This document shows, piece after piece, positions 14,338 to 64,000 of a DNA stretch of 64,000 bases. The translations under genes were made by a program, and so were the position numbers. Origin of the DNA: Nageia nagi (lineage: Eukaryota > Plantae > Pinophyta); the NCBI GenBank assembly GCA_050084985.1, contig JBITNC010000001.1:5766001-5830000 (forward strand), in the 5' to 3' direction. How positions within the stretch are numbered: the stretch's first letter is position 1; the number at the start of each line of letters is the position of its first letter. The notes beneath the pieces were generated by a model. That model was not told the DNA's origin. It did no database searches and saw nothing but the letters and a program-made list of their open reading frames with translations.

Positions 14338-14339
14338 AA

Positions 14340-26375: not shown

Positions 26376-28231
26376 TTTTTTTTTAAGGTAAATTTATATT
26401 AACAATGGTTTTTTATATAGGGCCTAAAATTCTTTCTTACAAAAATTGTTATGATATATCATTGAAAATGTTACTATCTACGTTATCCTACATTTTACTT
26501 CCATCCTTGGAAGGAGGATCCATCCATCTATGGTAACCAAACAGAGAGTATAGATCAATAACATAAGCAAAAGTATCCATTTCCATGCCCTGTATTTCTT
26601 TGGTCATAGCATTCTCCATCTTGTCCATGAAATCCCACCCAGCCTTGATGATGTTTTCTTGTTGATTAGGCATTCTATCCAATGGGATGCCCTCTGGTAG
26701 CCTCTTTATGGTTGTTCTCATTCTATGTAACTTCTGCTTTCTTTCCCTTTACTCACGATCATCATCATAAACTCGTATGATGGGCTGGTGAATTGCATAA
26801 GACTCGTAGAAGTTTGCAACAGTGAAGCCAAACTATGGGGAGAGGAGATAACTAACTTTTCTTTTTTGGTCCCCTTTCTTCATTTCTTTAGGTTAGTCTT
26901 CAACATTAGATAGAACTATATTCTTCATATGGCTCCTTCCATGGAGTTGTTCTTCACTTTTGACCTCACCCAAAGAAGTTAGAACCTCTGCAACATCTTG
27001 AATTGAGTCATCTAAATTAGAAGAGATGATAACCGTAGTGGGTGATTTAGAGGGCAATAGAGGGGTAAGGTGGTAAGGAGAAGGAGGTACTCAAGTCGGG
27101 GAAGTAGTTTTAGCTTGAGGAGGTGATGGGAGAGGAGAAGGAAGGGGTGATGGTGGTGGTAGGGGTGGTGGAGGAGGTGGTGGTGGTTGTGGAGGACATG
27201 GAGGCGGAGGCTGAAAAAGGGGTTGTGGAGGCCTTTATCGTAGTGGTACCATAATTTGAACCTTGCTATGGATAAATCCCACCAAAATCTTGATGAGACC
27301 TTGGTGGATGGGGATTTGCCCTCTGTTTCTATAGATATACGAGTCTAAATAATGATACAAGAAATAAGAGAGATTTACCCAAAGATTCCCCCTAAAATGA
27401 GCCATCAATACAAAATGATAGCCCCCTACTTTTGAGTGACATCCTTCCATAGTGAATAATTTACACAGTGCAACTACAACACTATTCCATGGATATGCCA
27501 AAGAATTCACTTGATAGCTTGATTTCTTCTTAGTAGGCATTGACTCTCCATCCTCTAGAAAATTTTTGATATCTGCTTACAAAGTTCTCACATGTTTGGA
27601 ATGTTGAATCCCTTCATTTGCCATACCCATAGAACATGCAATAATACCCAAGCTAGTTATAAAATTTAGCCTATCTATGGTGATCCTTCCTTCATCCTGG
27701 GAGTCTACAACCTATCGAGACCAATTTCTTCATGCCCTTGAAGAGAATCAATAAATCCATGAATACCCCCATTGCAAAGGGTATCCCATACTACTAGGTC
27801 TTCCTTGAACACCTCCCCATTAGTGAGTTTCAATCTTTTTTATCCTATAATTATTATTTCATAAGGTATTTTATAGGTAGGGATTGTCTAAAAGCATAAT
27901 GTTAGAATGGCCATGCAAACCACAAAATGGTTTAATTTATCCCTAAGGTGATGCCACCCTGTGAAGAACATATTGATCATCTAATCAAGAGTCCAATCAA
28001 TGACCTGCAACATCATGATCCATGCCATGGCTATAGTCCCTCCAAACAAACTCCATCTATCCCTGGTGCAGTGTGTGGGATAAATGTTCATTCTATCTAA
28101 ACATGTGTGAGTATTATTGGCATCAGCTATAGTGACTCATAGTTTAATTTCTTTCATGATTACCATAATGAGCTCATACATCGTCAGTATGAGGTTCGTG
28201 GAGTCGTCAATCTTCCCACCCATGCTGCCAA
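26376..28231 (-). mobile_element. Element A: poly(A)-tailed, TSD-flanked, RT-less retroposed element with one decayed ORF (~27850-26488)
   Basis: TSD TGTATGAAAGCTC(TTT) at 26363-26375 and 28232-28244; T9 tract at 26376-26384. ORF motifs are VWDTLCNGGIHGFIDSLQGH, YPWNSV..FTMEG..YHFVLM.HFR..VNLSYFLY and HQGLIKIL, followed by a Pro-rich tract. Confidence 0.88.
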
Positions 28232-40074: not shown

Positions 40075-40242
40075 CACTTTTGCTACTCTATGCTCACCCT
40101 TCTGTTATGCCACATTCACACTTATGTTACTCCATGCTCATGCTTCGATTACTCCACACTCTTGCTTTTGTTACTCCATGCTCATGCTTCTATTACTCCA
40201 CGCTCATGCTTCTGTTACTCCACACTTATGCTTTTGTTACAA
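40075..40242. repeat. ~21-22-bp minisatellite (TGTTACTCCAYGCTCATGCTTY)
   Basis: About 7 degenerate copies are visible. Confidence 0.85.
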
Positions 40243-40776
40243 TATTTTACACCTAATAATATCTTCATATCCTATTAATATTAAAAGTAGTACAAGGTCA
40301 GCAAGAAGAAGAAGTTAACTATATGGAATAAATACTAAAAATTATACATGATAAGGATTAAGACTTTAACATACAAGAATAAACATGGATAAAGATAGTT
40401 TTAATTCAGATATGCATGTTTCAAATTATGCACACAATGGAGATAAAAAAAAAATATGCATGATAATGATTGATAGAATAAGCTTGATGAGAAACATCCT
40501 AATAAAATATAAAATTAGTAAAATTAGGAAAAATAAATAGAAAATATCATATCAAGTAATTAAACCTAATAAGATAATGAAAGATCAATTTTGTAAAATA
40601 TTGTACCACTTGAATTACCATTACATGAATTTCCTACTAAAGAAAGAAGATATAAAGTTATGTATTATATATTAGATAATAAGGATTCCTTCCACCATTT
40701 CATCATATAAGTCTAAGTACAATGTGCTATCTTAAATATTTATAAATACTATAGTATGTTAGACTTATATCCACAT

Positions 40777-41902
40777 TGATGAGGCGAGAAATGAGATCGT
40801 TTTTGTTGTAACTCTATGAATGTATTTTATTGCTTGGAACACTACGAGACATTATTATTATGTTTTAGCTTATATGACTATTATATTTATAAGTAAATAC
40901 ATATTTGTTTTATCTCCATTTATAAGATGTTGGTAATGATTATTATTATATTTGAATGTTGAATGTTCATATTTTGCATCAAGTAATAATAATATGGTTT
41001 AAGTAAGAAACAACTTTAGAAATAGTTCTAGATGGACAAACTTCAGAGACAACTTCAGAATGTTCAAGCTCCATAATTATCTAAAAGGACCAAATTCAAA
41101 ATATATTTCAAAGGGATCACTTCATAATCATTTTAATAGGAAGCTTCATAGACATAACACATTCGCATAAAGTGTTTTGTTTCCTAGATGTCATTTTCTA
41201 TAAATACTCCATAACTCTAATAGAAGATTGTAACAAATTTTAAGATGCTAATCTAAAAGGATAATTATCAAACCTAAATAAGGGTATAATAAAGGATACA
41301 CAAACAAAAATCTGAGGTTGACTAAGTCTAAAGATTTGTTAGCAAGCTGGATATTTACTTGATCTTTTCTTTATACATATCTAAGCGATTCATAGTCTAA
41401 ATTAGGATTTTGTTTCAAATAAACCTATGAGTCATAGGGAATGTAATCAATTAGCATTAAATATTTTATTAAGTTTTTAGAATAAATTTACCTTATTCTT
41501 TCATAAGAAGATTAGCAAGGAACCATTATGAATTGTAAACTCGGTAGTTTTATTTGAAGATTATATATTTTCCAGTTTTTGAAGAAGTTAATACAAATAT
41601 CATTCATTCTACATTTTTAAAGTTTTATCTATGAGCTCTGTTGGAAGGAGGAGGACCCACTCTAAACAACTATAGTCTCTAATATTTATTATTGTAATTC
41701 AACATTTTATATTATGTACTACAACATTTATTTTAATATGAGTGTGAGTATGTGTGATTTATTTGAAAGAGTTTAGCTTATTTTTGGTATAAGTTATTAT
41801 TTTTATTAGATCCATAATATTTAGAATAGAGTATCAATTGCATATAACCTTAGGAAACCAACCCATGATATGATAAAGTAAATGATGAATTAACACACAT
41901 CA
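40777..41902 (+). repeat. Athila-like 5' LTR (1126 bp)
   Basis: Aligns with 63445-64000 from TGATGAGGC onward and is followed by the PBS at 41903-41924. Confidence 0.88.
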
Positions 41903-43957
41903 TTTTTGCCATCATTGCCAAGGATTATAGTTCTCTCTTATGTGTAGTGAAAAGTAACCACCTTTTATAGAAGTGGAGCACCAGCTCATTTGAGCTAACT
42001 GGTCCCTAATTGTTGGACAAAAAAAGGCTCATTATACATTGAAAAATAAATGGTGTTGGTTGAAACTATTTTTTAGGAAATTTCATGATAGTATTGTTGT
42101 TAGTATCACATAAGAAATTATGTATAGCCATGTTTCCTCAATTCTAGGGTAATAGAGATTTAATGAAAGTGATCATATCTGAGTATTATGAATTCTATTG
42201 AAATAATACTACATGGATAAGTAGATCTATTAATAAATCTCTATTTTATAATAGACTGAGTGATCTAGAACAATTGACTATCTTGCATTTTGAGAAGAAC
42301 TATTTTAAAAAGTGAGTAGTTGTTTAAGTTTTGTATTTATTCAGAATGGATGAATAGGCTTAGAGATGAAAGGGGGAGATTTATTAGTAGAGGTAGAATA
42401 ATAAAAGTAGAGGTAAAGGTAGATCATAATCAAAATTACCCAAGAAAAGTACCCCTAATCTAGGATCAAGTTCAAGCTCTCATCAAGCTAGTGTTAAAAA
42501 AGAAATTATTGTTGAACAAGTTACAACAACATTTGATGCTACAAAATTGGAAGAATGATTTGCTAAGAATGTTTTTAATTTAGATTTTTCTAAGGAAGTT
42601 GGATAAGACATAAAGAGTGATAGTAGTTCTAGAACTCTAGAAGAGCATCCTTTGGAAATAATTCCTACAAAATTGACTATCAAGAAGGTAGTAAGGTTTA
42701 CACAAATCATTTCACCTTTGCCTGGGCATTTTTCTTCAAGTGATACTAATTCTGAAGTAGAAAGAAAATAACTAAAATATCATTCCATATTTTCTACAAT
42801 TGAGGACCCTTCAAATTTGAAAAATACCTTCATTAACCCTTTGATAATAATGTCAGGAGGTAGTGCAATTGGAAGTGGACCTTTAGGTGGAGCTAGACCA
42901 ACTAATAGAACCTCCACTTATCCAATTGTAATCAACTAGAATACTGTAGGTCATGATCAACCAATGAATAATATCTCACCATATATTTTTCCTAACTTCA
43001 AGGGTCTTCCTAGTGAAGATCTAGATCAATTTCTGTTTGAGTTCAAGGTACTTTGTAGAACCTATGATTATGAATCTAATGCATAGAAATTGAAGTTTTT
43101 TCCATCAAATCTAAAGGATAATGCAATGAGATGGTTCATGGGATTAGTTATTTATTCCATTTCTAATTGGGTAGACATTAAAAAGGTATTTTTGGATAAG
43201 TATCAAAAGTATTGTAGAGTGAAGGATCAAAAAGATGAATTATTCAGAATCAAACAAGGTGGAAGAAAATTTGGAAGACTATTTGGATAGATTTTTGTTT
43301 ATCCATAAAAGGGTCGGTACTCTTATTGACCAAAAATTTGAAAAGACTATATTTTTGAGGGGATTGATAGACTCTTCATTAGATGTATTAATATAATGGG
43401 AAAAGAAAATATAAGTATCTTCACTATGGATGACATAGTGGAACTATGCAGAAACTATTCTAGAACAAAGACTTCTACTCGAAAAATCAAACCTCATAAA
43501 CATTATGATAATGTTGTTAGTGAATTAATTGATGAACTAGAAAATTTTAAGATAAATATTCTTGTTGAACTAAGTCTATTAAATAGAATAACAAATAAGT
43601 CAAACAAGGTAAGGGAATCTTAGGAATCTCTAGCAGTATATAGTCCAAGATGTAGAAAGAAACATGCACTATAGGAGTTTCCTCTTAATAAGATTAACAT
43701 ATGCATTTTTTGTAATGAGAGGCATACAACTAATTAATATGATTATTTGACTATAGCTTAGATGTCTGTAGCAAATGTGATAACATCTAAAAATGCTATT
43801 AGTCCGAGAATGAATGTTGAATTTCAGAACATACCTATTATGAAACCATGGTGGAACATTTCATTTCTACAACCTTTGGTTCAATAATCTCCACCATGGA
43901 TGCCACCTAATTTAGATTGGTTACAATATGCTTAAAATCAATAATGGGGAGGACCAT

Positions 43958-46900
43958 TGATCCAAAATGGATTTCGAAGTCTTAAAAAAGGTGATTTTTC
44001 AAGTTTATAATTTTGTTAATTATTCTCTTCCATATTAAAGAGCTCTCTTCCATGATTCTAATGATTCAAATGAAAAATAAAATAAAGCTATGGTTTGTAA
44101 GCTATGGCTTTTCAAAATTTGAAGTTAAATATAAAAAATGCAAAATATGCATGGAAGGCTCTATTGATGAACTCATAGGATCAAATCATGTTGATTCATA
44201 GCTTAAAATATGAATCATTGGTACCTCATGTTATGGTGAACATGTGGTTAAAATTTAAAGGCATTTGGATTAAATAATTGAAAGTTATGGCACTCACAAA
44301 ATAGTAAATTATCATTCTACGTTCATGATAGTCAAAATTTTGACAGCTACTAGGTTCAAATCTGCATTGGAGGCTAACTTGATGATGATTATTGGAGCTA
44401 CCAATAAGGATATAAAGTGTGAAATTTGGACCAATTAATATAATTATATCCAAGAACACTTGGATCAAATTTCTTGACATTTGGAATTATGGTCATGAAG
44501 TTGTGGTCATGACAAAATGGCACCAGAAGTAGTTTTAACAATTTTGCAAAATCCAAAAGGATAGGAGAATATAACCATATGAGGCCACAACAATGCTATA
44601 GAAATACAAATGAGGAGATTATTATTGTGGGTATGAGCGAGCATATTGTAAAGGAGGAAAAATAACAAATATTATCTTATCACCATATAACCATAAACTA
44701 CAAATTTGAAATCCCTTAATGTTATAAAAGGGAACATGAAGTTTGCAAAAAGTTAATTCTTTAGTGTGGATTTCCTTCCAAGGGGAGTGAGTTAGTGTAG
44801 GTTTGAAAAGAATGTAGAAGACTCTATTTTATTGTAAACTCCATGGAAAATAACAAATCCATGAGAGTAATATTGGAGGTGCATTTCAAGCTTGCATAGA
44901 AGAAGAAAAAGAACATGGACAAGATTATTGCCATGATGGAAAGAAAAAAAAGATAAAGAGAAGTTCTAGAGATGTCATCCTAGGAAAAGAGACATGGAAC
45001 TATGCTCAAATACTTTCGTAGGAAAGATAGTCGTATTCAAGAAAGAGATTCAATGGAGAGCCTACAGTGATCATGTGATTCAGCTTTGACAAACAAAAGA
45101 GTGAAGCAAAAAGGATCATAAAATTAACATTGTAAAATGGACTCTATAATAATGGATTGCTATTTGCTAGATGTAGACCACATAGGTCGAACCAGGGTAA
45201 CTATGTGTGTACATTATTTTGTGTGTTTTTGATTTGGTGTGCATTTTTATTTCCATAAGCACTAAAATGAACAAAATGTGAAGATCCAAATTAAATCCTG
45301 AAGTAGGGTTTATAGATCAAGTTGGTATCAAAGCAGTTCTTTTATTGAAAGTTGATTGAGCTTGTTAGAAAAAAAAGAATGAGTGATTTATTTTTAAAGT
45401 TTAGTGTTGTGCCTACTTCAAAGTTAAGAGAACCTAATCTAATGGATTGGATTCATGGTTTGAAAGAATGTGAGGTTGAGGTAAATTTTCATTTTCAAAG
45501 TTAGCAATTTTCATTAGCATTAGATCAAATATTTCCATCATAAAATTATTTCAACATGAATTCTGGTGGGAAGATAAGGGCCCATCTTCTTGACAGTTAT
45601 GATAACTGAGGAAGTTATGTTGAAAGTGAATATTCTTATTCTCTTGATTCATTGAGAATACAAAGTGATGTACCTAAAAATGCCAAGCGAATTCAAATTG
45701 AGGAGCAAATTAAAGAAGGTGATTCCAAGAAGGTGTAAATCTATATTTGTGTGAGGATTATTTTTCTCATTATTTTGATCAAAAGCCCCTAAAATGGGAT
45801 GAGTGATCCAAAATGGATTTTGAAGTCTTAAAAAAAGGTGATTTTTCAAATTTATAATTTTGTTAATTATTCTTTTCCATATTAAAGAGCTCTCTTTCAT
45901 GATTCTAATGCTTCAAATGATGAATAAAGTAGAGCTATGGTTTGTAAGTTATGGCTTTTCAAAATTTGAAGTTAAATATAAAAGATGCAAAATATGCATG
46001 GAAGGCTCTATTAACGAACTCACCATGAGTAGCTCATGTTGATTCATAGCTTGAAATATAAATCATTGGTACCCCATATAATGGTGAACATGTGGTTAAA
46101 ATTTAAAAGCATTTGGATTAAATAATTGAAAGTTATGTTATGGCACTCACAAAATAGTAAATTATCATTCTCCATTCATGACTTGGTCCAAATTTTGATA
46201 GTTGCCAGGTGCAAATCTATGTTGGAGGTTAACTTGATGATGATGCATGGAGCTAGCAATAAGGATATAAAGTGTGAAGTTTGGACCAATTAATATACTT
46301 ATATCCAAGAACACCTAGATCAAATTTCGTGACATTTGGAATTATGGTCATGACAAAATGGCACCAGAAGTAATTTTAATAGTTTTGCAGAATCCAAAAA
46401 GTTAGGAGAATATAACCATATGAGGCAAAAATAATACTACAAAAATACAAATGAGGGAGATTATTATTATGAGTATGAGAGAGCATATTGTAAAAGAGGA
46501 AAAATAACAAATATTATCTTATCACCATGTAGCCATAAACTCCAAATTTGTAATACCTTAATGTTATAAAAGGGAACATGGAGTATGAAAAAAGTTAAGT
46601 CCTTTAGTGTGGATTTCCTTCCAAGGGGAGTGAGTTAGTGTAGGTTTGAAAAGAATGTAGAAGAGTCTATTTTATTTTAAACTCCATGGAAAATAACAAA
46701 ACCATGAGAGTAATATTGGAGGTGCATTTCAAGCTTGCATAGAAGAAGAAAAAGAACATGGACAAGATTATTGCCATGATGGAAAGAAAAAAAGATAAAG
46801 AGTAGTTCTAAAGATGTCATCCCAGGAAAAGAGATGTAGAACTATGATCAAAGAATTTTTTTGAAAAACGAGTCATCTTCAAGAAAGAGATTCATTGGAG

Positions 46901-47160
46901 AGCCTATAGTGATCATGTGATTTGGCTTTGATAAATAAAATAGTGAAGTAAGAAGGATCATAAAATTGACATTGTAAAATGGACTCTATAATAATGGATT
47001 ATTATTTGCTGGATGCAGACCACATTGATCAAACTAGGGTAACTATGTGTGTACATCAGTTTGTGTATTTTTGATTTGGTGTGCTTTTTATTTTTACGAA
47101 CACTAAAATGAATAAAGTGTGAAGATCCAAATTAAATCTTGAAGTAGGATTTACAGATCA
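43958..47160 (+). mobile_element. Non-autonomous LTR element with ~1.36-kb LTRs (43958-45319, 45804-47160) and a 484-bp internal domain
   Basis: TSD ACCAT (43953-43957, 47161-47165), TGATC...GATCA termini, PBS TGGTATCAAAGC (45323-45334) and a purine-rich tract before LTR2. Confidence 0.93.
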
Positions 47161-48188
47161 ACCATAGTGGAATAACATACAACAATATAATTGGAATAAT
47201 CAAAAGTCTAATTATCCTAATAAATAGAGAATATTTAATTAGAATACCCAACAACAAGCTCTATTACCAGGAATAATTCAATAACCACGATACCAAAATC
47301 AACAAGTACCTAGACAACTAGCTCTTCTTGGTCATTTGATTCAAAATCCAAATAATAATAGATAAATTGTTGCACTTACCTATCAAATGGATCAAGAAGA
47401 TACAATATTAATTAGTTCTATTAAGTGCCATGACATTTAGTTAATATCTAGTAAGAAGATGAAAGAACCATCTCCACCTATCATTGTTGAAGTTCTAAAT
47501 GATGATTATGAAGAATCATTACCATTTGATCAACAAAATAAGAAAGAGAGTGGTTAGAATAATGAAAAGAATTAGGTAGAGAAACTAAATTAGGCACTTC
47601 CATATCTTGAGAGACTACAAGAGAAGTTTCAAAAAGAGAGTCAAATTTGCTCAAGGAATTGAGAAGATTGAATATTTTAGTCCCAATACTACAAGCAATC
47701 AAGGAAGTTCTTGAATTAAATAAGATGGCTAAAGAACTTTGTATTAGAAAAAGAGGAAGGAGAAATAGAATATATTCCAAAACTATTCAGGTAGATGGCA
47801 AATTAGCAGACCTACTTACAAGAAAGCTAATTAACCCTAAGTATGGTGATCTAAGAAGTATGGTAATCATAGTTTTAATTAGAGACACCATGATACAAAA
47901 TGTTTTAATTGACTTAGGGTAGCCATAAATGTAATGATAGTAGAGATAGTAAAAAAATTGAAATTATTTGATATGTATCCAAAAATAACTAATAGTAAAA
48001 AAATTGAAATTATTTGATATGTATCCAAAAATAACTATCTTACAAATGGAATATTAGTTAATAGCCAAACCTGAAGGTATTATTGAGGATGTACAAGTCA
48101 CTATGGATTCATGGAATTCTTCAATAGATTTTTTAGTCTTAAAAGTAAAGGCACATAGTGGATATCTAGTAATCTCGGGAAGACCTTG

Positions 48189-51100
48189 TGTAACAACCCT
48201 ATTTAAATATAAACACATAATACCATCCATCCCATACACTCAAGAGGTGAGCACAAAATGTTTTCCCTCTAAGTAAATAAAACAAGTAATTGAATTTAAT
48301 CAATTCTAAATGTGTTTGGAAGTTGCTTGAAAATGCTACGAATTTTAATTCACAATATGACTAGTATTGTTCCAAGCTACATCATGCATGAGGTCTAGAC
48401 TCTTCACTAACTATATACCATTTTCCATTATTTAACTTAACTCATTAAATAACTTCACATGACTTGCCCTTGTTTGTTTTCTTGAACATAATGACTTCCA
48501 AATGGTACCATATACCTACCTGTATTTCCTACTATCATCATATCAAGGAAATTTAATACTCCAAGGTCCATTCAAGCTTGGGTATTTCTAATTTATCTTA
48601 GCCTAACTCGCTTGAAGATAAATCTACATCCCTTAAATTAATAATCATGCTTTACTTAGAGCTTTGCTTAAGTCTACAGTTAGGTTTAAGTATCCACACA
48701 ATAAAACCCACTATGAATTAAGAGTAAATCATTCCCTTATAAGAGATATTATATTATCTTTATTCCCACATATAAGCAAGGGAGTTAGGTCCTAGAAACA
48801 TAGTACTTTGCATAAAATATGAGATTTTCAAACCAATCATTATCATTATCCATAAAGTATCAAGTAATACTAAACATCATCACATTTAAGTAAGTATCAT
48901 CATATAATGTGAACTTTTCAAATCAAGTAAGCATTATAAAGTACAAAGCAATATCACATTCAAGTAAGGTAATTCATTTGCTAAACTACTCTTTAATAAA
49001 AGAATAGCACTTAGTTTTTCAAAGACTAATCTTTCTTAAATCCAAATATATCAACTTTGTACAATAATACAATCATTCTAAAAAGGAAGTAATAATTCTT
49101 TTCAAAGTCTCTTCATAAGGATAACAATGGCCTTGCTATTTATTTATCAAATCAAATAGCAGGTACAATACATTCAAAACCTATAGAAGGAATTTATCAA
49201 ACTCCTTTCCCATACTAAGATCAAAGCTTTGCTGCTTTATGATGGACGATAGCTCAAGAATGGTTGGATCAAATATAGTCTTGGGTTTCCTCTAAAATGC
49301 AACTACATGCTTTGCCATTTTAAGGAAATGTTCCAACAACTCTAAGAACTCTAAAATGTCAACTCACATTTTAAAACAAGCAAACAACTTTATTTCAAAA
49401 CATCAATTCCCATTTTAAAATAAATCAACATCTAATAATCACAACTCTATTTTAAAATACTACCCTATTTTAAAATAATTAAACAAACCCTATTTTAGAA
49501 TACAGCATCCTAAAATAATTTCAACATTATTTTAAAATGCTTCCCTATTTTAAAATAACTAAATAAACTCTATTTTAGAATATAATACACTATCCTAAAA
49601 TAATTACAATATTATTTTAAAATACATCCTTATTTTAAAATAAATAAACAAACTCTATTTTAGAATAAAATACAATATCCTAAAATACTTACAACATTAA
49701 TTTAAAATGCATCCCTATTTTAAAATAAATAAACAAAGTCTATTTTAGAATGAAATACAATATCCTAAAATACTTAGGATATTATTTTAAAATACATCCC
49801 TATTTTAAAATAAATAAGCAAACTTTATTTTAGAATATAATACAATATCCTAAAATAATAACAACATTATTTTAAAATACATCCCTATTTTAAAATAAAT
49901 AAACTCTATTTTAGATTATAATACCATATCCTAAAATAATTATAATTATATTTTAAAAATAATACCACACTTATTTTAAAATATTTAAGAATACATCATT
50001 CTCTATTTTAAAATAATACCACCCTATTTAAAATAAAGAAACACCTTATACATTCAAATATCATTTTTGATAGTAACACATTTATTTCGTTTCAACACCA
50101 TCCCAAAACCCTTTCACCTAGATCCAAATTAAAATAAAAAATACTAATATACTCTCTAATTTGTAAAATAACATAGTAAAAGAACAAATAATTAAAGAAA
50201 ACCCCTAAATTAACCCATTTATGCACACACTTCGAAAAGGGGGAGAAAGCAAAGTCAAAGTGAGGTTTAAATGGGCATGTACAGTCCCCAAGGAGCTAAC
50301 ACATCCCATATAGAGCTTCCATTGTAAAAAGGTAAGGGGGACGAGAGATGTGGGACTTGGAATCCTCACATCATCCCTGGCTCTACAAGGTGGTGTATGG
50401 TGGTGCATGGGAGTTCCTAGTCCCATGTTACCCCAAAGGAAGCAAACGGAGTGGGGACTAGGCCCATGTTGGTTTTTGGGAGCTCCCAATAGACAACATA
50501 ATGCCTTAGGCTCTAAGCCAGGCCCATGTGGCTTTGGGAAGCCCCTTTTGCCAATGTGAGGCCAAAAGGCTCCACTAAATTCCCTTAATTGGGATTTTTG
50601 ATTTGTGTGGTCTTCTAAGCCACAAGGTACAATTCCCATTAATGGGGGCTTTTTAAAACTTTAAAAACATACTTTAAATTATAAAACCTCCTTTCAATCC
50701 TATACACAAATTTCAAAACCACTATATTTTTAAATGGAACAATCTAGTATGAGAATAAACTAAATCCTCAACCAATCAAAATTTAGTAATACTAGGAGGT
50801 AATAATGACTTGTAGGTAAATAAAACTAAGTACTATTACTGAAACTCAATCCCATAATTATCGAAGGACTTGGCTCCAAAATTATAGAACTTTGCTACTC
50901 CAAAATTAATGAAAATAAGAATGATCCAAAATCTCTACCCTAGGGCTCTATTTATAGTTTTCAAATAGGGCTAGAATTAGAAATTAATAGGGAGTGACAA
51001 CACCACTTAAACTCAAGTGAGTGGGATTTAATTCCTAAGTAGAAATATCTTCCCACTTAGTCATAAATAAAAACCCTAGTGGACTGAGTTCTATTAGCAC

Positions 51101-51970
51101 ACCATAACTTAACACTGACACACCTCAACTTATAACTGGCACACCTAACTTGCAACTGGGACATAACAGCTAAAATTGAGACACCTCATGCTAATTAAGT
51201 ATAATAAATATTATTTAATTATGAATATTATTTTAAAGGCTTAGTTAACTCTAGCCTTTATCAATCAACCAATCATAATCTATCTAGCTTAATTTAATTA
51301 TTTTAAGCTAAACAAATAAATAATATTTAAAATTTAGGGATTACTATTTTTAATTATTAATTAACCTTAATTAATAATTAAGAAGTAGAACATACAAATT
51401 CTTACAAAATACTTATTATATATATTTAAATAATTAAGCTTTACCTTTTTCCTACCTAGTTAGTTCCTTTATCTATGTTTACCCTCTAATATTAATTATT
51501 AGGGGTCCTTAGATAATTATACTAACATCCTTGGCAATCCTTTAAGGCATAAAAATTATTTTCAACTGAAATTAAAGAACACAACTAGGCAATCATAGAC
51601 ACATATTAACAATCCTAGGGAGCTTATCTTGCCCATGTTGCTATGTATGTATGCAACCACTTACTCAACTATCCTAATGTCTCGATATTATATGATCATG
51701 AGAATCATTGGTAATCATTCATTTCCAAACCATTCAAGAGCATCCCACCTTTCATTACCCATCACCTGCACATGACAAAACCATTAGCAGTAATAACATG
51801 TACATATAGGTAGGATAAGTAATCATTATCCTTATCTAGGATTTCATAACCTAAACAAATAATAGCATATCAAGCATTTTATTCAATTAGCATATAGTTA
51901 ATGTCTTATTTCACAATAGACCACATCAAAATATACTAAGGGAAATCTAGGGTAGATTTGGGCTATGACA
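48189..51970 (-). mobile_element. Solo LTR of 3782 bp with Tekay/Del-like termini
   Basis: TGTAACAACCC...GGGCTATGACA termini, TSD CCTTG on both sides and a minus-strand TATA at ~50957. Removing it restores the host GRPWLAT frame. Confidence 0.9.
49445..50040. repeat. ~78-bp AT-rich tandem repeats inside the solo LTR
   Basis: Repeated CTATTTTAGAATA..TATCCTAAAATA..TTATTTTAAAATACATCCCTATTTTAAAATAA. Confidence 0.9.
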
Positions 51971-54900
51971 CCTTGGTTAGCTACAACAACTACATTTATC
52001 AACTATATATCAAGAGGTATGACCATTTTATATGGTCATAATTATATAAAACTTTCTTTATATCCTCCTGCTCAACCTACATTTGAATGCCAAGGTCAAA
52101 TATGAATTGATGAACTAGAGTTTAATGAACCAAAAAGTTTTGTAGTACTTTCTACAATCAATGTTATAGAACATGTGGAAGAATTATATGAAATACATGA
52201 AATTTTTGAACAAAATATAGCTTCAACAATGGTCATAAAGGTTTGCGAGCCATTAGGATCAAATCTTCATGATGACATCTTCAATATACGATAACAAGAA
52301 CAACCAAACTTCTTATCTTTATTTAAATGTCCTCTTAAACATATAATTCAAATAAGGGAGGCATATAGGGTAAGAAAAAATGTATTTCATTCTCTATTTC
52401 CTCATCGTTATTCTTTAAATTATTTAATGCAACTTATATATCAAAGCAAGTTAAGTCACACATAAGTGGAAATAATTGAAGTACTCACATAAAAGACTTT
52501 GAATATCAATAGTTGGTTGACATTCAAAGAAGATGAACAAGCATTCAATGTTTTGAAATCTCACACTTTAGGATTTGCATGGGATTATTTTGACATGAAT
52601 GTAATTCATCCAGATATTTTTACTCATCATATATACATTGATGATTCTAGATCTATTAGACAGCCACCTAGATGGGTAAATCTAGTAGTAAGAAATATTA
52701 TACAACATGAAATTGAAAAACTATTGAAAGTAGGATTCATATATCTTATGTTTCATCTTTAGTAGCTTTCCCCAAAAAAAATGGAAAATGGAGAATATGT
52801 GTGGACTACAGATGTTTGAATAAGCCTACACATAGGGATCATTTTCCTTTGCCATTCATTGACCAAGTCTTGGAAAATCTTGTTGGTAAAAAATAATTCT
52901 CATTTCTTGATGGTTTCAGAGGCTATAATCAAATTCAAATTGCAAAAGAAGATCAAGAGAAGACATCATTTATTTGTTCCTCTAGACATTTTGCTTATCA
53001 AGTTTTACCATTTGGATTATGTAATGCCCTTGCTACTTTTCAAAGAGCTATATTAGTCATCTTTGTTGATCTAACTAATGATTTTGTAGAAGTATATATG
53101 GATGATTTCATGGTGCACGGGAACACTTTTGAAGAAGCATTACATAATCTTGAAAAAGTGTGTGTTAGGTGTGAAACATATAACTTATCATTAAGTTATA
53201 AAAAATATTTAATGCTCATGTAAGAAGGAATTGTCTTAGGACATCATATTTTTATTGAAGGAATTAAAGTAGATCCAAAGAAGGTGAAGATTATCAAATA
53301 ATTTTCGACCGCATAAAATCAAACTGATGTGAAGTTTTCTTGGATGCACTAGTTACTATAGGAGATTCATTTCAAATTTTAGCAAGATCGTAGTCCCATT
53401 ATTCTCATTGCTACATAAAGATAATGAATTTGAGTTAACATATTATGAAAAGACATTTTAGACAATCAAGGAGAAACTCATGATTATCCCTGTATTAAGA
53501 AGTCCAAACTAGAAGTTACCTTTTTACATTCATACTGATGCATCAAATTATGTTATTAGAGCAATACTAGGTTAAAAACATCAGAATAAAATATATTATG
53601 CCATCTATTATATCAACAAGAATTTAGTGGGAGCTAAAAATAATTAAATCACTATAGAAAATGAATTTTAGGAGTAATACATGACATCAATAAATTTAGA
53701 AATTATATTATTGGTTACCAGGTTTTTGTTCACACATATCATGTTGCCATTAGGTATATTATGAATAAACTAGTAGTAAGTGAAAGAATTATAAGGTGGT
53801 TACTTTTATTGCAAGAATCTAATGTGACCATTGTTGATAAACCAGGTAAACCCAATGTTGTAGCTAACTTCTTGTCCAAACTAAGAAAAAATGAAGATGA
53901 TGAACAAATGCAGGATTCTTTTCTTGATGAAAGATTATTTGCAATATTTGTACATGCAACTTGATTTGCAGATATAGTTAATTACTTAGCAAAAGGAAAA
54001 ATTCCAATTCATTTCTCTTTAAAATAAAATAGAAGTTTAATCAGAGAAAGCTAAACATTCAAATGGATAGATGGGATGCTCTTTAAATATGGATCATATT
54101 ATGTTCTTATAAGATGCATCAAAAAGGATGGTGTATTTGATGTTTTAAGAGCTTTTCACAATGAACCATCAAGAGGTCATTATTCAAAGAAGATAACAAT
54201 ATAGAAGGTATTGGGAATTGGATATTATTGGCCTTCATTACATAGAGATGTGCAAAATTATGTACATCAATGTGATCAATGTTAAAGAATGAGAAAATAC
54301 ACATTCACTACACAAATGCTATTACATTTGCAAATTGTTCTTGAACCTTTTAAACAATGGGGAATTGATTTTGTTGGACCTATCAAATCTCCATATCAAG
54401 GTAAAAAGCACATTCTTATTTGTACAAACTATATCACAAAATGGGTAGAGGTCTATGCTCTTGCACAAGCTAAAGAAGAAAAGGTAGTTATTTTTCTATA
54501 TAATAACATTATGATTTTCTTAGTATTAGATCAAGGACCATAGTTTATATCTAATGTGATTAAGAATTTTGTCAATCATTATTAGATTAAGCATAAGAAA
54601 ACTTCTCCATAACATCCCTAAATAAATGGTCAAGTTGAGGTGACTAATATAGAATTGAAAAATATTCTTATAAAAATTGTAGCATCTCATAAGAAAGATT
54701 GGGAAACTAGACTTTTAGAAGCATTTTGGGCATATAATGTCACATGGAAATCAACTACAAAGTTTATACCTTATGAGCTAGTCTATGGAAAAAATCCTTT
54801 GTTACTAATAGAATTTGAGATCTAGACTCTGAGAATAATTATGAAAATTGGGTTAGATCTTAATGAACCCCAACATAAAAAGATGTTATAGCTGAATGAA

Positions 54901-57826
54901 TTGGATGAACACATAATTGAAGCATTGTCAAATATCAAAATTCTTTAGCAAAAAAGGAAACTATGCCATGATAAGCAAATGAAACATGTAAAATTCACTC
55001 CAATAAAGTGGGTCTTATTATTTGATTCCAAGTATTAAACCTTCTTAAAAAATTACAAACTAGATGGTTGGGGCCATATCAAAATTTGCAAGTCTTTGAT
55101 AATGGAACAATTAAACTTTAATTAATTGTGACTCTAGTAGAATCATGTTGGTAAATGGGCATCGAATACAACCTTACACTCTACGCATGAATAAGGAGGA
55201 GTTTACAGAATAAATAAAGAAATAAGAGTTATGTTTGATTGAGGAAGATTTATCTTCCTCATCCAAACAACCTTGATCCATGATAGTTTAGAAGAATAAG
55301 ATTGAGCTTAGAAATAGAATCAATATGGATTTTGAATGGATAATCATAAAGGCAGTCAGATAGATGAAAACTAGAAAATTATCTAGGTGAAAACCTCTAT
55401 GTCTTATATTCATTATCTATTTCTAAAAAAAAGAGAAAAAGAACAAAAAAGAAAAAGAAAAAGATTCATATTCTAAAGATTAGTTGAATATTATAAAGAA
55501 TTTCAATATATATTTATGGTTTTAATGTTTTACCATTACTTTAGAATAAATGTGATCTTTTTGGAATGATTATTCTATAGACAAATGGCCTATAGTTACA
55601 ACTTTAGAATTGTAACTATAGAATCCTTAAAAGCTTAAACTAGCTTCATAATACTTAAAGGCTTGAGAATACTTGAGCACTTCAAGGAAACCTATCAAGA
55701 ATGCCAAAACAAGGACACATCATCTATCTTGGATGAAGAAGTGGGCATCTTGGCAATGATCACTAACCATGTGTCATATCAGTAGCAAATTGTGTCAAAT
55801 CCAACTAACAACACTTGTAAGATACATATTTAATGGTGGAGGTATGTATTTATTTTTAAATTACTAGTTGATTTAAGCCTAAATCAGATCTTAGTAATCT
55901 CACACATGTTTCAAGTCAAAATCATTTAATTATGAGTTAGGATGATCACATGAAAGAGATAAGTGTCCAAATCTAAATGGGAAATAAACATGTTATATGT
56001 TAGCCCCAATTTGACATGAAATCATGCAAGTTGGTGAAAATATGGTGATAGTATGTAATCAATGAACATAGTAGTTTATATCAGCTGAAAAAATTTATCA
56101 ACCTTCATTTGAAAATCACTTTAAAAGAATTGAGAAGGGATAAAAGGGTAGTGAGATTTTTCCAAAAATTCCATATTTTAGAATTCTTTGAAAAGTTTCA
56201 AGGTTCTAATGAGTAGCTGGTTCTATAGTTTGTGGAAAAATTTGAAGAAAATTCTATACAGTTGAGGGATCATACAATACCCATTATTATTGAGATTATT
56301 GCTATAATATTTAGACTCCCTATAATAGGTGATGATTTGATTATGAAATAGCAATATGATGCTTTGCTTGATAGGTTCCATTGGAGAGGAGAACAAAGGG
56401 CCAAGAAATACATCACTACCATTTATGTATAAGGAATTAAGAGGAAAACTCTTCCAAACTAGTGGACAGAGGTGGAATTATGGATTATCAAATTCTTAAC
56501 CTATGAGGGACAACATGGAACAATCATGGGCCATCACTTGAAATTGCTCATTAATTTAAGGTATGGGTCAGAACTCAACTATAACATTTCAAAGTTTCTA
56601 TATCAAAGTTTGCAAAATATGTCTAGATGGGTTAGGGAAATGCAAGGAATAATCTTATGAACTTGAAGCACCATGGTTTAATTACAATGCTCTATAGAGA
56701 ATATTTCTTAGCTCAAGATAATGGAAAAGAATTATGGGTAGGTTTCTTAGGGTATGATCCATATTCTATACCTGAAACCTCAACCATGTAGGAGGAAACT
56801 TTAGGCAGCCCTAGTGAAACCATATTTAGACCAAAAATAAAGGTTTGTCCCACATACACATAAATACCTAAATTTGTAGTGGGATCCATTAGTACTACCT
56901 AGGATGAATTGCCTAAGGACCATTCCAATTCCTTAGAAATTGATGATACTAAGGAGGAAAACACATAATTACCTAAGTCTTCAAACCAACCATACCATAA
57001 GGAGGTTATTTTTAAATACCCTTCAATATCCCACTCAACCCCTATTTACAATGGTGAAAAGAGAAAATTTGAAAGAGGTAAGGAGATAGAGATTAAAAAG
57101 GTATGAATATAAGTCATAGTTTTTCATGAAATTTAAGAGGATATCTACACAGTTAAGGAAGAAGGAAGTGGCTCAAACATCAACACCTCTAATTAAGAGA
57201 CACTGTAGAAAAGAAACTTAAGAAGAGAAGGAATTTGGCTATTTCACAACCTTTGAAACCCCTAAAAAAATGATAAACCTAGATGAAGAGGATAATGAAA
57301 CCAATAATTAGAATGTATAAATGGGATAATTTCCTATACAAGAAGAAGGAAATGATATTCAACAACCTCAAACTAAGGAAGAACCAAACTCTATCCAATT
57401 GACCATATATGTAACTGGGCAATTGCTAAAAGAACTTGAGATACAAGTTCATGAACTCATGCCTAGATTTCATCTTTTGGAAAAGGAAAATGCCAAAATA
57501 AATGCTAAGAAAAATAAATTGGAGATTGAGAATGATAAATTAGTCAAATAATGCATAGAGCTCACCTTAAGCAACTTAGAACTTGAGGAAAAATACAAGG
57601 CAATTGAGGAATTAATAGTTCAAATTCAAAATGTGAAATTGCCTCATCCAGTTGTAGGTGAGGGTGATGCTGTTATTATACAAGTATCAAAGGCACTTAC
57701 AAGAAAATAAAGGGAAGTTAAAAACTTAAAACTTCAAAATACAAAGCTAATAATACAATTGGTCAACATACATGAAAAGCATTCTAAAGAACTCAACATA
57801 CTTAAGAAAGAAGTCAAGGACATGCA

Positions 57827-60800
57827 TTTTTTTTATTAATGGGTAAATTTTGTATTAATAAAAAAGGTGAAGTTTATAAGGATGTTCACCAACCTTTACA
57901 AAAGGATTATCTAAAAATTAGTTTTTTGAGTGCTAGATTGTCCTTGCTAATACAACAAATCTATGAGGATGCTAATATTAAGATTCCATGTAAATTCATT
58001 AGGTTTATCTTTTAATTTACCTTTACCAAAACTACTACATATCCTTATGTAACTAGGAGTATCAAAAATAAGCACCTATTAAACTAAAACCAAGACATAG
58101 AAAAAGCTATCTATAACCTACAATAAAAACTAAACCATTTCTTCATAGCTGAACTTGTAGAATCTAATGTAGGTATTCTTGAGAAGGATTTCTTTGATAC
58201 CTAGATGCTTCCCAACATCTTCATACTTCTCACTTTTTGCTCCTCTTTTGAGTCTGGCCTCTTTTAGCATCTCCTTGTGTAGTTTAGGGCTCATTACTTT
58301 CTTGAAGCCTACTAAGGTCTCTTTACTTATTTTTTTAAGGTGTCTAGCCCTATTTCTTTGTATGATTTACTTTTTGTTCGATCAATAACTTGGTCAGGAT
58401 GATATTTAGTCTTCTTCTTTTCTTGGGTCATTACAAGATCTTATTTCCTACCCTTGAAAGACTTATCTATCTTTCTTATCTTAAATCGAATAAGGGGGTT
58501 TTTCTCTTCCAATTTTACTACTTGGAATCTTGGTAACCCTACTACATTATGCTTTGAAGTCACTTCCTCTTATATGGCATTCATAGGTGTTGGAGAGGAT
58601 AGGTCTCTTAGTCTATATGACCACTTAGTTGGGTTTTTTGTGCTCTCACTTCTAACTAGGTTGGCTTCCAGATACACTTGTGGACTATTTATCTAAGTTT
58701 GCTATTTTGGACCTACTAGCTTAGACCCCCCATCACTAAAACTACTACATTCTTGTATATTCATACATAATAAATTCTTTATTAAAGCCTCGGTGTACTT
58801 TACTTGCAATCATGGGTTCATTTTAAGATCCCCGGGAGTTTTTCTGGAGCAAACAAAACAGGCCGGAGTCCGGAAGTAAAGAATTCCAGAAATGTGAAGA
58901 TGATGTCACAGAGGATAAGATAGTCGCATTTTGGCAAAGATCGGGTTCCGGAGATGATGATGTCAGCAAGGGATGATTAAAATACCGGAGTCAGTGGATA
59001 AAGCGTTCCGGAATGAGATGATAAAAGCTCAGTTGTGGAAAGGCCCGGGTTCTGGAGAAAGCGAGTAAAACATTTTCGGAAGGGGAAGATGACATCACGG
59101 GGAGAACAACATTCACATTTTTGAATGAAACTGGGTTCCAGAGATGATGAGGTCAGTAAGGAGCTATCAAATAGTCGGAGCCAGTGAGCAAAATATTCTG
59201 GAGGTAAGAGATGACGTTAGCGATTCCGGGCCTTAACCCAAAATCGGAGCCCAGAAGTGATGAGGTTAGCAAGAGATAATCAAAGAAGCTGGAGCCGATA
59301 ACTTAAGTGTTCTGGAAGTAAAGCATTCCAGATAAAATGATGACATCACAGCGGAAAGGATAAAGCTCAGTTTTGATAAAGAATGGGTTCCGGAGATGAT
59401 GAGGTCAACAAGAGATAATCAAAGAAGCCGAGCCAGTTAAGTAAAGAATTCCAGAAATGTGAAGATGATGTCACGGATCTTAGGTCTTAACCCAAAACCG
59501 AATCTCAGAAGCGATGAGGGCAGCAAAAAAGTGATCAAATAGCCGAAGCCAGTGAGTAAAACATTCCGAAATGTAGAGACGAAGCTAGCAAAAGGTCAGA
59601 TCACAATTGTCAAGAATCATATCATCTGTAATCTTGCCCGTTTTTGTAATATTCTGCCAGGTGGCGTATGTAGGTAGTATCAGTTAAAAGAAGACTAGAA
59701 TCTTGAAGCCATTTTGTAACCGTTTCTATTCTGCACTTCTTGTAACTGTTGTTACTACAGTATAAATATATGAAAATAAAATGAGAAAAAGGTCGGAAGC
59801 CTAGTATTGCTCTTTACATTTGTTCTCGAAGACCTGTAGTTTTTATCAGTAATATGAAACCATCTTGACCTTTCTTATCTAGCGCTCGTAATTGTCATTC
59901 TTAATTTGGTTACATCGTGGCAGCTTGGCTTGTTTCCTGAATGATAATTGCGGGTTGCTAGTATAACTGTGTCTGCTACATGGTAGAGTAAAGCTGGGAA
60001 ACTATTAAAGAGTGAGAGCTTGTACCGTAGCTGCTACACTAGATTCAGGCCAAGGTTTCACACACTGTGAAAGCCCGCGCTGAACTAGTGATCCACCTTT
60101 ACTTTCTCTCTTGTTACCCTAAGCCTTTTTGCTTAAATTCCTTGCACTCTACTCCTTTTATTTCTTTCCTGTTACCCTAACCCTTTTGCTTGAATTCCTT
60201 GCATTTTACTCCTTTTATTTCTTTCCTGTTACCCTAACCCTTTTGCTTGAATTCCTCACACTCTACTCTTTTATTTCCTTTCCTGTTACTTTTTCTACGC
60301 CCAATAGATAAGGAACCGGCCTTCTCCTGTTCATGATTTACTTTGGTTAAGATTGCTCACGGTGCATATTTACACAATCCTAATCAACAATTCTCTATGC
60401 ATCCTCTCTCTACTCTTGATCATCGAAGAGAAACTACTTTACTTTGAGACATAAAGGAGTGCTAGTTGATGTATGGCATCCATAGGATTATCCTAAGGTT
60501 CACTAGTCATTAGGATAGAAATTCTCTCCTCCTCTCTTGGAGGTTCCATGCACTTCATATCCTCTAAAATTGGTGTATGATATTGCACTATTTTTGGCAC
60601 TATTTCTGTTCTGCTTCTTGCTTCTACCAGAACCTTCTCACTTGACATTTCCTTCTCCAAAATAAGTTTTCTCTTAATTATGATACTTCCTCTTGGTTCT
60701 TCCTATTCAAGTAGGCTGGAGATTGTTCTTCCTATCCTACTATTTAGATATTTAACTCTAATTTTTTCTTATCCCTTCCACTTACACATGACTTTCCTTC

Positions 60801-62399
60801 TTTTGGGGGATATAATCTCCTTATCTTTAGTGTTCTTGACACTAAGTCTCCCTCCTCTCATCCCCCATTTAGCTCCAATTTCCATGAGGGTATCATCCAT
60901 CTAAGTATCCTCTTGATATTCACTTTGTGACGAATCTTCACTAATTAATTGGGGGAATTGATATAAGAAGCCTTCTTTTACATCACTTTCTTCTTAATGC
61001 TTTCCATGCTTTTTATCCAATTTCTCATTAGATAGGGACCTTTGCTGGTGGATTTAACCTCCTATTTGTTATTACTAGGTGTTATCCCCTTCTTTGAGTC
61101 TTTTTCTTGAACCTTCTTGCCAGGTTTGTAGACTCTACCATCAATAATGAATTTAACCCTAGGAATTTTCTTAGGGGTCATAGCCAAAGCTCTATCTACC
61201 TCTAATTTGATAACAGCTCCATACAAGGGTAAATGAGCTCTTTCCTTTTTAACCTTATCAATTAATTTTGCTAGAGAATTGAAAATGAAGAAGGGGAAGT
61301 TTACCTTATCCATATATTAAAATATGAAGTGATTCAACTAGAAGAAGTGTGAAGTGAGAAGCATTTTGTATCGCCCTTCCAACCTTACATATTTGATCAA
61401 AACTAAATCCATATCATCCCAAGGGTTGAGGATTGATTCTCGCACCACCCCTATCTGATATTTCTTTATATCTATTGATTTTATTACTTTCATCAAGAAT
61501 TTATCTTTGCCCTTTAGTTTGTTCAATTTTTCTTCTCTTCTAATATGTAGACCTTCATTTGGTAGCATGATAGCCAATGCAATCATAATAGGACTAAACA
61601 CAACGTCCCTTCCTTTAATAATACACTTACCATTCCCCTAAGATTTTGCTACTGCTAGGGAAATCTCATTATCATGCCCTTTGCATACATTAATAAAGTT
61701 CTCTATCTCCCCCTCACAAATAATATTCCACACTAACGGGTTGATCTTTACCTCATTTGGGGAATAAGGCTCTACTCTTACTAGGTCTCCCCCCATCTCT
61801 TCTACTCTAAAAACACTCCTGCTACTCTCCAAAATAGCTTAGCTTGTTAGGAAAACTTGAAAACTGATAACGACACTCTTACCACCCTCAGTAATTATGG
61901 CTATAAGTGTCTCTTGTCACTAGGAGTACTTCTCACTCTTGAATAAAAAGTTGGCCTAGGGTGGCTCATGGGAAAGGTCATTGGGAACTCCAATTGAGGG
62001 TCTTAAGGTAATGCCTAATTCTTCATTGGATCTAACAGGTCAAGGATTTGGCTAATATTCTAGAATACCTCACTTTCCTTCAAAAATTCATGGTTTCTAA
62101 CACCATCTACTAAAATAGGTGCTTCATCTACTATTCTCTACCCAATTTGATATAGTTTGTTCAATAGGAATTTGACACTTTGGCATAGATAAGCATGGTT
62201 TTAGCAGTACAAAGTGGCTCAATTTAATGAATCCTCTACATAGGACTTTGGTGCATTTACACATATAAGTATGGTCTAACAGTACAAATTGAAAAGGTGT
62301 TATTAATCTTGATGATGAGTCACCAATCCTCAGGTCCCCTATGTCATAGGTGGACAAGTTTTAAAACAACACCTCCATGTCTACCCCATCTTCTTCCCT
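57827..62399 (-). mobile_element. Element B: poly(A)-tailed, TSD-flanked, RT-less retroposed element with one decayed ORF (61796 to ~58130), ~2.95 kb without its nested LTR
   Basis: TSD AGTCAAGGACATGCA(TTT) at 57812-57826 and 62400-62414; T8 tract at 57827-57834. ORF reads MGGDLVRVEP..VWNIICEGEIENF..KGHD..LPNEG..NPWDD..KYVRLEG..VNFPFFIFNSL. Confidence 0.9.
58779..60389 (+). mobile_element. Solo LTR (~1.61 kb) inserted in element B
   Basis: Ends ...TAATCAACA and is flanked by ATTCT (58774-58778, 60390-60394); the 5' TG is eroded. U3 repeats at 58850-59590, TATAAATA at 59761 and three 57-bp repeats at 60110-60290. Confidence 0.72.
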
Positions 62400-63444
62400 A
62401 GTCAAGGACATGCATTTAATTAAGAAGGCTATAATAGATCTTTATACCATATTTGAAGAGGTAATACAATTAAAACAATCTTCAATTTTATATAGTATGT
62501 ATTTAAAGGAACAATTCCTTAAATGGCAAGTTAGTAGGATTAAGAAAGGTCTTCCTTACAATATTGATAATGATAAGTTACTTCTTTATGTTTATTATAA
62601 AGTGAGGGGAGAAGAAATGTTTTTGTTGTGTTAATTTTACATGCATAATTTTATTTTGAATGGAAATACAAGGCTTTTCCCTTTTTTGTATATTGGGGAC
62701 ATCCAGTTACATTCCTTTGTATCAATTCTCCAAAATCAAATAAAATGGTACAAGGATAGAGGAGTACAAATAGGAAATTTCTTAGGATACTTTCTTTGTT
62801 CATTAGCAACCCATGTATTCTAGGAAAGTAGAAGTTAGCTTTAGAATAGTTCTTATTAGGAACAACAATGTAGAGAGATATAAAGCTATACTTGAAACTT
62901 GTTTACAATATTGCCAAAATGGTATTAACAAACATTTTGAAAGGGCTTTACAAGCATGTACCATTAGGTGGAATATGTAGATACAAGAGTATAAGGAGAT
63001 GGAAATAATCAATATAAGAAACCTAAAATGTAGCAGAAGAAGAGCTAAAGCATTGATTAGACACATTAGGGATAACCCCTTGAATTGGTGTGGTCAGTAG
63101 TATAGACCTCCTATAATTTTGCATCCAACACTAACATTGGGAGATTTTCATATTCAATATGATTCAAGATTTAGAGCATGGATGTTAGAGATCAAAACTA
63201 CTAAAGGGCTATGGTATCCAAATGATAAACTTGATTGGTTTGCTCATAATGTTAAACTTCTTGCAATAACATATGAGATAGTACAACCCTATGATTTGAA
63301 TCACCTGATGAAATTTTCCAATGACCCAAACAATATAGTACAGTACAATAAAAATAAGGAGGAATATGAAGATGAGTAAGTGGTCCAAGAATAGATAAAT
63401 TTTTGATTTTTTGAGGAGGAGGAATATTCTAAGTTAAAGAGAAA

Positions 63445-64000
63445 TGATGAGGCAAGAAATGAGATCCCTTTTGGTAAAAATTTATGAATGTATTTTGTTG
63501 CTTGGAACACTATGAAACACTATTATTATGTTTTAACGTATCTGAGTGTTATATTTAGAAGTAAATACATATATTTTTTTTCTTTATCTCCATTTATTAG
63601 ATGTTGTTAATGATTATTATTATATTTGAATGTTGAATATTCATATTTTGCATCAAGTAATAATAATGTGGTTTAAGTAAGAAATAACTTTAGAATTAGT
63701 TCTAGATGGACAACATTCAAAGACAACTTTAGAATGTTTGAGATCTAGAATTAACTAAGAGGATCAACTTTAGAATATGTTTCAAAGGGATAACTTCATA
63801 ATCATTTTAATAGAAAGCTTCAAAAATATAACATGTTGGCATAAAGTGTTTTTTTTTTTGAGGTATCACTTTTTGTAAATACTCCACAACTTTAGCAAAA
63901 GATTGTAATAGGTTTCAGTATGATAATCTAAAAGGATAATCATTGAACTTGAATAAGGGGAAAAATGAGGATGCACAAAGAAATATATGAGGTTGACTAT
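63445..64000 (+). repeat. Athila-like 3' LTR (partial)
   Basis: Diverged direct repeat of 40777-41323, preceded by purine-rich GAGGAGGAGGAA..AAAGAGAAA. Confidence 0.88.

Follow-up and report, generated by a model that had tools for sequence, protein, structure and literature searches.

We propose that a single family of accessory genes is carried both by an Athila-like LTR retrotransposon and by lineages of L1-type LINEs, and that its product is an anti-silencing factor resembling VANC21 rather than an envelope protein, a reading to which we give a probability of roughly 55%. The proposal concerns three related ORFs in the AT-rich, 64,000-nucleotide stretch of Nageia nagi DNA analysed here (hereafter the window), namely ORF C, which would represent the family behind the integrase of the Athila-like element, and the ORFs of two poly(A)-tailed inserts, A and B. 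L1-type lineages would likely carry the same family as a third ORF behind ORF2, with insert B, and probably also insert A, being 5'-truncated and dead copies of such L1s; reverse transcription from the tail would often halt early and so leave copies holding the third ORF alone. The conserved domain of ~190 residues would enter the nucleus and bind DNA motifs of its own element, its C-terminal helical part would give oligomerisation, and the DNA binding would relieve host silencing of the carrier element. All copies in the window (A, B and C) are dead, and the value of this locus, itself dead DNA, lies in the gene family. LINEs with a third gene directed against silencing would, if real, represent a new architecture and could bear on how the huge genomes of gymnosperms keep transposons active.

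ORF C and Its Host Element

Like the extra ORF of Athila elements, ORF C is a sense ORF between the integrase and the 3' LTR of its host element, which has the following features.

40777..41902, + strand: 5' LTR of the gypsy (Athila-like) element, with TG start and CA end from sequence; paired with the LTR at 63445 (83.6% over 555 nt against 63445-63999)
41907..41924, + strand: decayed primer-binding site, from sequence
42880..43599, + strand: gag remnant (PF03732, E = 1.3e-7)
52897..55180, + strand: remains of pol, covering RT, RNase H and integrase and broken by numerous stops, from Pfam, the end set by eye
56052..57829, + strand: 5' part of the extra ORF C, with the conserved domain at ~56130-56728, then low-complexity and heptad-like sequence (judged by eye); stops and frameshifts
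62418..62634, + strand: end of ORF C beyond insert B, the frame carrying on across the target duplication
63413..64000, + strand: purine tract and 3' LTR (LTR from 63445, running off the window end), from the LTR pair and sequence

A Pfam search recovered gag, RT (RVT_1, 3e-17), RNase H (RT_RNaseH, 2e-7) and a weak integrase match (rve, 0.017, below the cut-off) in gypsy order, and the protease was recognised by eye alone. The identity of the element, judged from domain order and LTRs, is consistent with Athila; the additional RNase H that separates Athila from Tat gave no Pfam match in three frames of 51961-52562 and 55101-56101, where the DNA is decayed. The primer-binding site resembles the tRNA-Asp type. 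Inside the element, a 1.84-kb block is present as a tandem duplicate (89%) between gag and protease (43958-47161), and a 3.8-kb insert that includes an 85-nt tandem array (49411-50018) separates the protease from RT (~48190-51990).

The + frame from 56052 contains the motifs FFEKFQG, IIAIIFRLPIIG, LPNXW, IIKFLTYEG, GHHLKLL and NISKFLYQSL, with HHGLITML reached only after a frameshift near 56650, and holds five stops in 200 codons. The preliminary description of this DNA had reported an ORF behind the integrase with the same motif series as A and B, and the series is indeed found there, one of its motifs being frameshifted.

Inserts A and B

The two inserts and their ORFs have the following features.

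26379..28231, − strand: insert A, 1.85 kb, poly(A)-tailed; 16-nt target duplication 26363-26378 / 28232-28247
27250..27820, − strand: conserved domain of the A ORF (HMM E = 2e-45), with a proline-rich stretch and the C-terminal part on to ~26490
57830..62399, − strand: insert B, poly(A)-tailed, within ORF C; 18-nt target duplication 57812-57829 / 62400-62417
58754..60389, − strand: 1.6-kb solo LTR nested in B (TG..CA, 5-nt duplication)
61200..61796, − strand: conserved domain of the B ORF (start codon 61796; HMM E = 3e-50), with coding-like sequence on to ~58200
62345..62399, − strand: first 55 nt of B, like the last L1 ORF2 codons of the outside locus L002 (nucleotide match; tblastx E = 0.03)

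Both target duplications are exact and lie beside A-runs, as does that of the full L1 of the window, their chance expectation being ~4e-4 for the 16 nt of A and ~3e-5 for the 18 nt of B. In their poly(A) tails, their target duplications of 16-18 nt starting with A's and their 3'-biased copies, the inserts resemble plant L1-clade LINEs. Minus the nested solo LTR, insert B measures ~2.9 kb; it sits antisense in its own homologue, ORF C (57812-62417).

Copies of A were surveyed in read contigs from two DNA runs of related organisms, both belonging to one study. Across the neighbouring host gene the contig depths summed to 2-8, against 57-111 across the core of the A ORF, and in finer bins the sum was highest at the tail end of A (>1000), a measure which differs from copy number, may include other LINEs among the tail matches and is to be read beside the contig counts. 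At 26385, 32 and 42 contigs of the two runs exit A through a T-run into flanks that are mixed (agreement 0.6); one variant within the A ORF is carried by 29 and 32 contigs. A-type sequence is clearly a multi-copy family, and the earlier view of A-tailed copies as families holds, with tens of distinct tailed A relatives in related species. A single contig from a run guessed as RNA overlaps part of the 3' end of A and was not used as evidence. Directly upstream of A, ~28300-28800 is a very high-copy repeat with summed depth in the thousands. The host gene at 22383-24581 (− strand), presumably encoding a PNO1/KRR1-like product (a name given from its translation), is covered by spliced contigs that omit 23019-23154 and 23417-24580.

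Homology and Phylogeny of the Three ORFs

Pairwise BLASTP with permissive settings aligned A with C at E = 5e-5, B with C at 3e-6 and A with B at 1e-7, and identities over 155 columns are 25% for A-C, 21% for B-C and 22% for A-B. Word-based protein searches with the decayed A, B and C peptides gave no matches; a full HMMER scan of the protein database with an A/B/C profile gave 515 representatives at E<=0.001, the best 150 of 515 being used for relatives. An HMM of 108 relatives run against the six frames of the window found A (2e-45), B (3e-50) and C (3e-38, with its frameshifted tail at 0.07), the next-best match in the window having E = 4. Because these 108 relatives had first been gathered with the A+B+C profile, a split-group cross test was run in which the relatives were divided by tree into a C-side and an A/B-side group, with one HMM for each. 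The C-side HMM alone found B at 9e-27 and A at 2e-25, the A/B-side HMM alone found C at 2e-22, and all five reversed sequences used as controls scored at most 4 bits. On these sequence comparisons, the homology of the A, B and C ORFs appears virtually certain. The preliminary description had held the cargo ORF of A and B to be homologous to the Athila-type extra ORF, and the split HMMs, which cross-match at E = 1e-21 or better, bear this out; so too its notion of a domain common to LTR and non-LTR elements, since C lies behind an integrase and A and B are poly(A)-tailed with target duplications.

For the phylogeny, hits shorter than 125 columns were dropped, leaving 110 of 235, and the alignment was thinned at 65% identity to 71 of 115 rows; from these 71 rows, over 155 columns, a maximum-likelihood tree was computed and midpoint-rooted without outgroup. 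It separates a 28-row group containing C from a 43-row group containing A, B and the outside loci L001 and L002 with UFBoot 100, the context being known for five rows. Because A/B and C fall on the two sides of this branch, A and B are not nested in the lineage of C; the A-tailed copies group apart from the LTR-borne C, an outcome that the preliminary description had envisaged.

The family differs from the Athila extra ORF as described so far in that its named relatives come from Ginkgo and Taxus and that it has a second, larger group in poly(A)-tailed elements. Five gene models of Ginkgo and Taxus (P0004, P0008, P0015, P0076 and P0114) include the domain, some of them fused to PPR or other domains, fusions that are probably mis-predictions; the domain family may inflate gymnosperm gene sets.

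Kinship to Described Families

A Pfam search of A, B and C returned no hits at E<=1. Among 144 relatives, four matched PF20167 (Transposase_32) at E<=0.05, the best reaching 29.8 bits (6.5e-7) against a cut-off of 45 bits, and the nearest relatives of C are among these weak matches under the Pfam cut-off. None of the 144 matched PF03078 (ATHILA), and none hit the plant mobile domain (PMD) or VANC (DUF1985) families of Pfam at E<=0.05; likewise, the PMD (PF10536; MAIN, MAIL1), which the literature confines to angiosperms (PMC8616336), and Transposase_28 (PF04195) gave no sequence hit to the family. In the Atlas, which uses language-model features, PF20167 occurs in 24 of 30 and 22 of 30 neighbours (scores of 0.91-0.93, which carry no E-value), and an ATHILA cluster is present in both neighbour lists. 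The domain family is probably a remote branch of PF20167/ATHILA, a kinship that is weak by Pfam and consistent by Atlas. Of the Pfam comparison suggested in the preliminary description, the ATHILA side is retained in this form, with the Atlas link and a weak Pfam score below cut-off, and PMD and PF03078 remained unmatched.

What the extra ORF does in Athila has been an open question for decades; it is still labelled env-like (PMC7264820), and the retrovirus label has been advised against (PMC6317226). For a sunflower Athila ORF with PF20167, a nuclear signal has been predicted (PMC11728184). Ogre/Retand, the sister clades of Athila, are reported to have accessory ORFs in their 3' region as well (PMC6317226), where the Retand ORFs are given as antisense (PMC11963269), whereas C is sense.

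Predicted Fold and Possible Function

AlphaFold models were obtained for one C-type and one A/B-side relative (mean pLDDT 84 and 78; most alignment rows shared). In a structure search of 48,161 chains, VANC21 bound to DNA (9lnk) was the top match, over most of the domain, and the sole one with Z>=5 for both models, with Z 5.5, rmsd 4.4 and 164 aligned residues for the C-type model and Z 7.5, rmsd 5.3 and 197 aligned residues for the A/B-side model, values that lie below the guide value of 8 and, with rmsd of 4-5, can reflect a common arrangement. The runner-up matches had Z 3.5 and 3.8 over ~55-60 residues, and sequence identity to VANC21 is 7-9%. Foldseek ranked VANC21 (9lnj) second for the A/B-side model (E = 1.1, TM 0.40) and missed it for the C-type model; against PDB and BFVD it found nothing at E<=0.001, viral envelope/movement and fusion-protein folds included. 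The A5 profile run against PDB sequences did not find VANC21 at E<=10; the sole PDB sequence hit (E = 0.056) was ignored. The VANC21 match is middling but isolated, a strong lead rather than proof, and on these models the domain is likely to share fold kinship with VANC/PMD.

VANC21 belongs to VANDAL21, a Mutator-like DNA transposon (9LNK/9LNJ), and like the family described here is the product of a transposon accessory gene with a globular domain and a helical tail; VANC differs in being described as dicot-specific and in residing in DNA transposons. According to published reports, VANC21 binds a nine-base motif in the non-coding parts of its element and brings about a loss of methylation (PMC5735166), and in structure VANC resembles the plant mobile domain of MAIN/MAIL1, two proteins that associate with DNA motifs and act against Polycomb silencing (PMC13547354; 10.1101/2024.09.27.615353). 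Both VANC and the Athila domain have been modelled as coiled-coil pentamers (PMC13547354). Since the predicted fold is like that of VANC21, the ~190-residue domain would likely bind DNA motifs of its own element to counter host silencing; that the family has an anti-silencing role for its carriers is, by this analogy, about an even bet.

A scan for hydrophobic helices in 13 intact relatives (19-residue Kyte-Doolittle) gave a maximum of at most 1.35 in 12 of them and 1.89 in one, there upstream of the domain; in the decayed peptides, maxima of 2.2 (C) and 1.7 (B) fall within the globular domain. An envelope role is disfavoured because the extra-ORF family also occurs in LINE-type elements, which are not known to make a particle and have no known use for an envelope. 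The same architecture could nonetheless house an RNA or particle factor (a chaperone, or a protein for nuclear import or integration targeting) or an envelope/movement protein, the best placed of the alternatives even if improbable: roles of this kind have been proposed (PMC7264820), the VANC21 match is middling, and some modelled domains are basic (K+R 25-34 versus D+E 17-27), which fits RNA as well as DNA. Weighing against such a protein, besides the presence of the family in LINEs, are the lack of a strong hydrophobic helix in the 13 intact relatives and of a viral envelope or movement fold match, the latter being inconclusive alone. A non-envelope role of the anti-silencing type, which the preliminary description had offered alongside RNA chaperoning, stays the best guess, with the VANC21 fold match and no clear membrane anchor in the 13 intact relatives.

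The long-puzzling 'envelope-like' gene of plants may therefore be a DNA-binding defence against silencing, and because the VANC21-DNA complex has been solved, the fold match makes the function of the extra ORF directly testable. A VANC21-like fold in gymnosperm transposons, if true, would also question the view that VANC was captured from the host's MAIN. Our literature search found no report of a fold link between Athila and VANC, and prior notice is possible.

L1 Context of the B-Type ORF

A scan of metagenome contigs with the B-type alignment, covering 17 of 64 parts, provided two context loci (L001 and L002), both from one metagenome sample, and in each of them the B-type ORF lies behind L1 ORF1/ORF2 sequence on the same strand. 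In L001, an L1 ORF1 (DUF4283, 4e-21), endonuclease (2e-8) and RT (6e-26) extend up to 7376 and the B-type ORF begins at 7693; the locus is rearranged, ORF2 breaking off with its last part missing. In L002, ORF2 runs to its end, including zf-RVT (3e-10), and is followed, without change of strand, by a spacer of ~600 nt and the N-half of the B-type ORF; this locus too is rearranged, since the C-half of the ORF, the tail and the poly(A) stand in inverted orientation at the start of the contig, behind a repeat of 59 nt, possibly as a chimera. The domains of both ORFs of plant L1-clade LINEs (DUF4283 in ORF1; endonuclease-RT-zf-RVT in ORF2) are thus found upstream in the two loci, and the B type would differ from these LINEs by an extra, sense third ORF of several hundred codons after ORF2. 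A plant LINE with such a third ORF was not found described in our literature search, which leaves prior notice possible.

The tail of insert B is 87% like that of L002, an alignment far above chance (0 of 500 shuffles as good), and the first 32 nt of B are identical to the ORF2 end of L002 in 25 of 32 positions, the best of 132,722 background positions having 22, with the reservation that this 32-nt anchor was picked after the match had been seen. The distance from the ORF2-end match to the start codon is 603 nt in B and 623 nt in L002, and between L001 and L002 the ORF2 (67%) and the third ORF (69%) are equally diverged. A global alignment of the B and L002 spacers (z 3.5) was dropped, since z falls to 0.9 without the anchor; the score of the anchor-free spacer is equalled by 38 of 160 real control segments. 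No convincing target duplication was found in L002 around the L1 and third ORF.

Because ORF2 lies upstream of the B-type ORF in both loci and the start of B matches the end of that ORF2, B is likely an L1 that carries a third ORF and has lost its 5' part by truncation, a conclusion that we consider quite probable on sequence grounds. For A the same origin is suggested with somewhat less assurance: its tail is weakly like that of B (35 of 500 shuffles as good), and its 5' part matches none of the L1s compared. The tails of A and B show no significant likeness to the window's own L1 (158 and 123 of 500 shuffles as good). The preliminary description had taken the ORF to be retained in RT-less elements and hence beneficial. 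With the B-type ORF following L1 ORF2 in two of two outside loci, 5' truncation is the simplest account of the missing RT in B, and the argument falls; the retention of the third ORF by autonomous L1 lineages would be the better argument for a benefit.

Protein-coding, RT-less and A-tailed sequences moved by L1 enzymes are known in HAL1 half-L1 elements and in processed copies of HERV-W; A and B show neither the ORF1 retained by HAL1 nor the LTR ends retained by processed HERV-W. A and B might be stand-alone, non-autonomous retroposons that never carry RT and borrow L1 enzymes through an L1-like tail, their neighbourhood to L1 in L001 and L002 then being due to nested insertion; this would be the self-propagating element of the preliminary description, with no need for an Athila mRNA at its origin. 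RT is indeed absent from both window copies, the 5' end of A is devoid of L1 sequence, L1s are common (~13% of the window), and the ORF2 of L001 ends abruptly at the junction, the state in which an insertion would leave it; among the database members, several consist of a long open ORF on a short contig, which fits either reading. We nevertheless hold this to be distinctly unlikely, in view of the same L1 family on the same strand at two of two loci, the L002 junction at the very end of ORF2, the opening of B with ORF2-end-like sequence in register and the equal divergence of ORF2 and third ORF.

It is very improbable that a spliced mRNA of the Athila extra ORF gave rise to A and B as processed dead ends, each made once by L1 enzymes: poly(A) and long target duplications fit, a spliced env-like mRNA of Bagy2 is reported (PMC7264820) and B contains a 42-nt integrase-like match, but against these stand the absence of a clear LTR piece before the tails (best 22 nt, E = 0.02, compared with the window's element only), the identity of 21-25% to C across the UFBoot-100 branch, the tens of distinct tailed A relatives and the conservation of the B-type tail in L002. 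For the lineage of C this reading is already largely refuted. The descent of A and B from retroposed Athila subgenomic mRNA, advanced as a possibility in the preliminary description, is accordingly not supported and probably wrong. The 42-nt match (83%) joins the 5' region of B (62136-62174, − strand) to integrase-coding DNA at ~54409-54450; it is reached by 0 of 500 shuffles and by 2 of 264 real segments, and lacks translated support.

No more loci with context came from a metagenome scan with P0157, from viral contigs searched with A6, P0240 and P0115 together with the tail motif, or from prokaryote genomes searched with the tail motif. In L001, the segments 2262-3542 and 3552-7376 are two head-to-tail copies of one L1 family (86% over 607 nt), and a 13-nt duplication lies at the ORF2 break point.

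Other Elements in the Window

The full-length L1 at 31456-37367 shows few breaks; its target duplication measures 18 nt, and a tandem array of 17-nt units (36716-37072) lies in the interval from ORF2 to the tail. The 108-relative HMM detected no third ORF of the A/B/C type in the six frames of this L1. A second L1 ORF1 (DUF4283) remnant lies at 39112-39906 (− strand), with no ORF2 seen behind it and a 22-nt tandem array at 40040-40259. At 5921-15083 there is a young copia-type element with near-identical LTRs, long minus-strand ORFs and a 49/66-nt tandem array (7087-7625).
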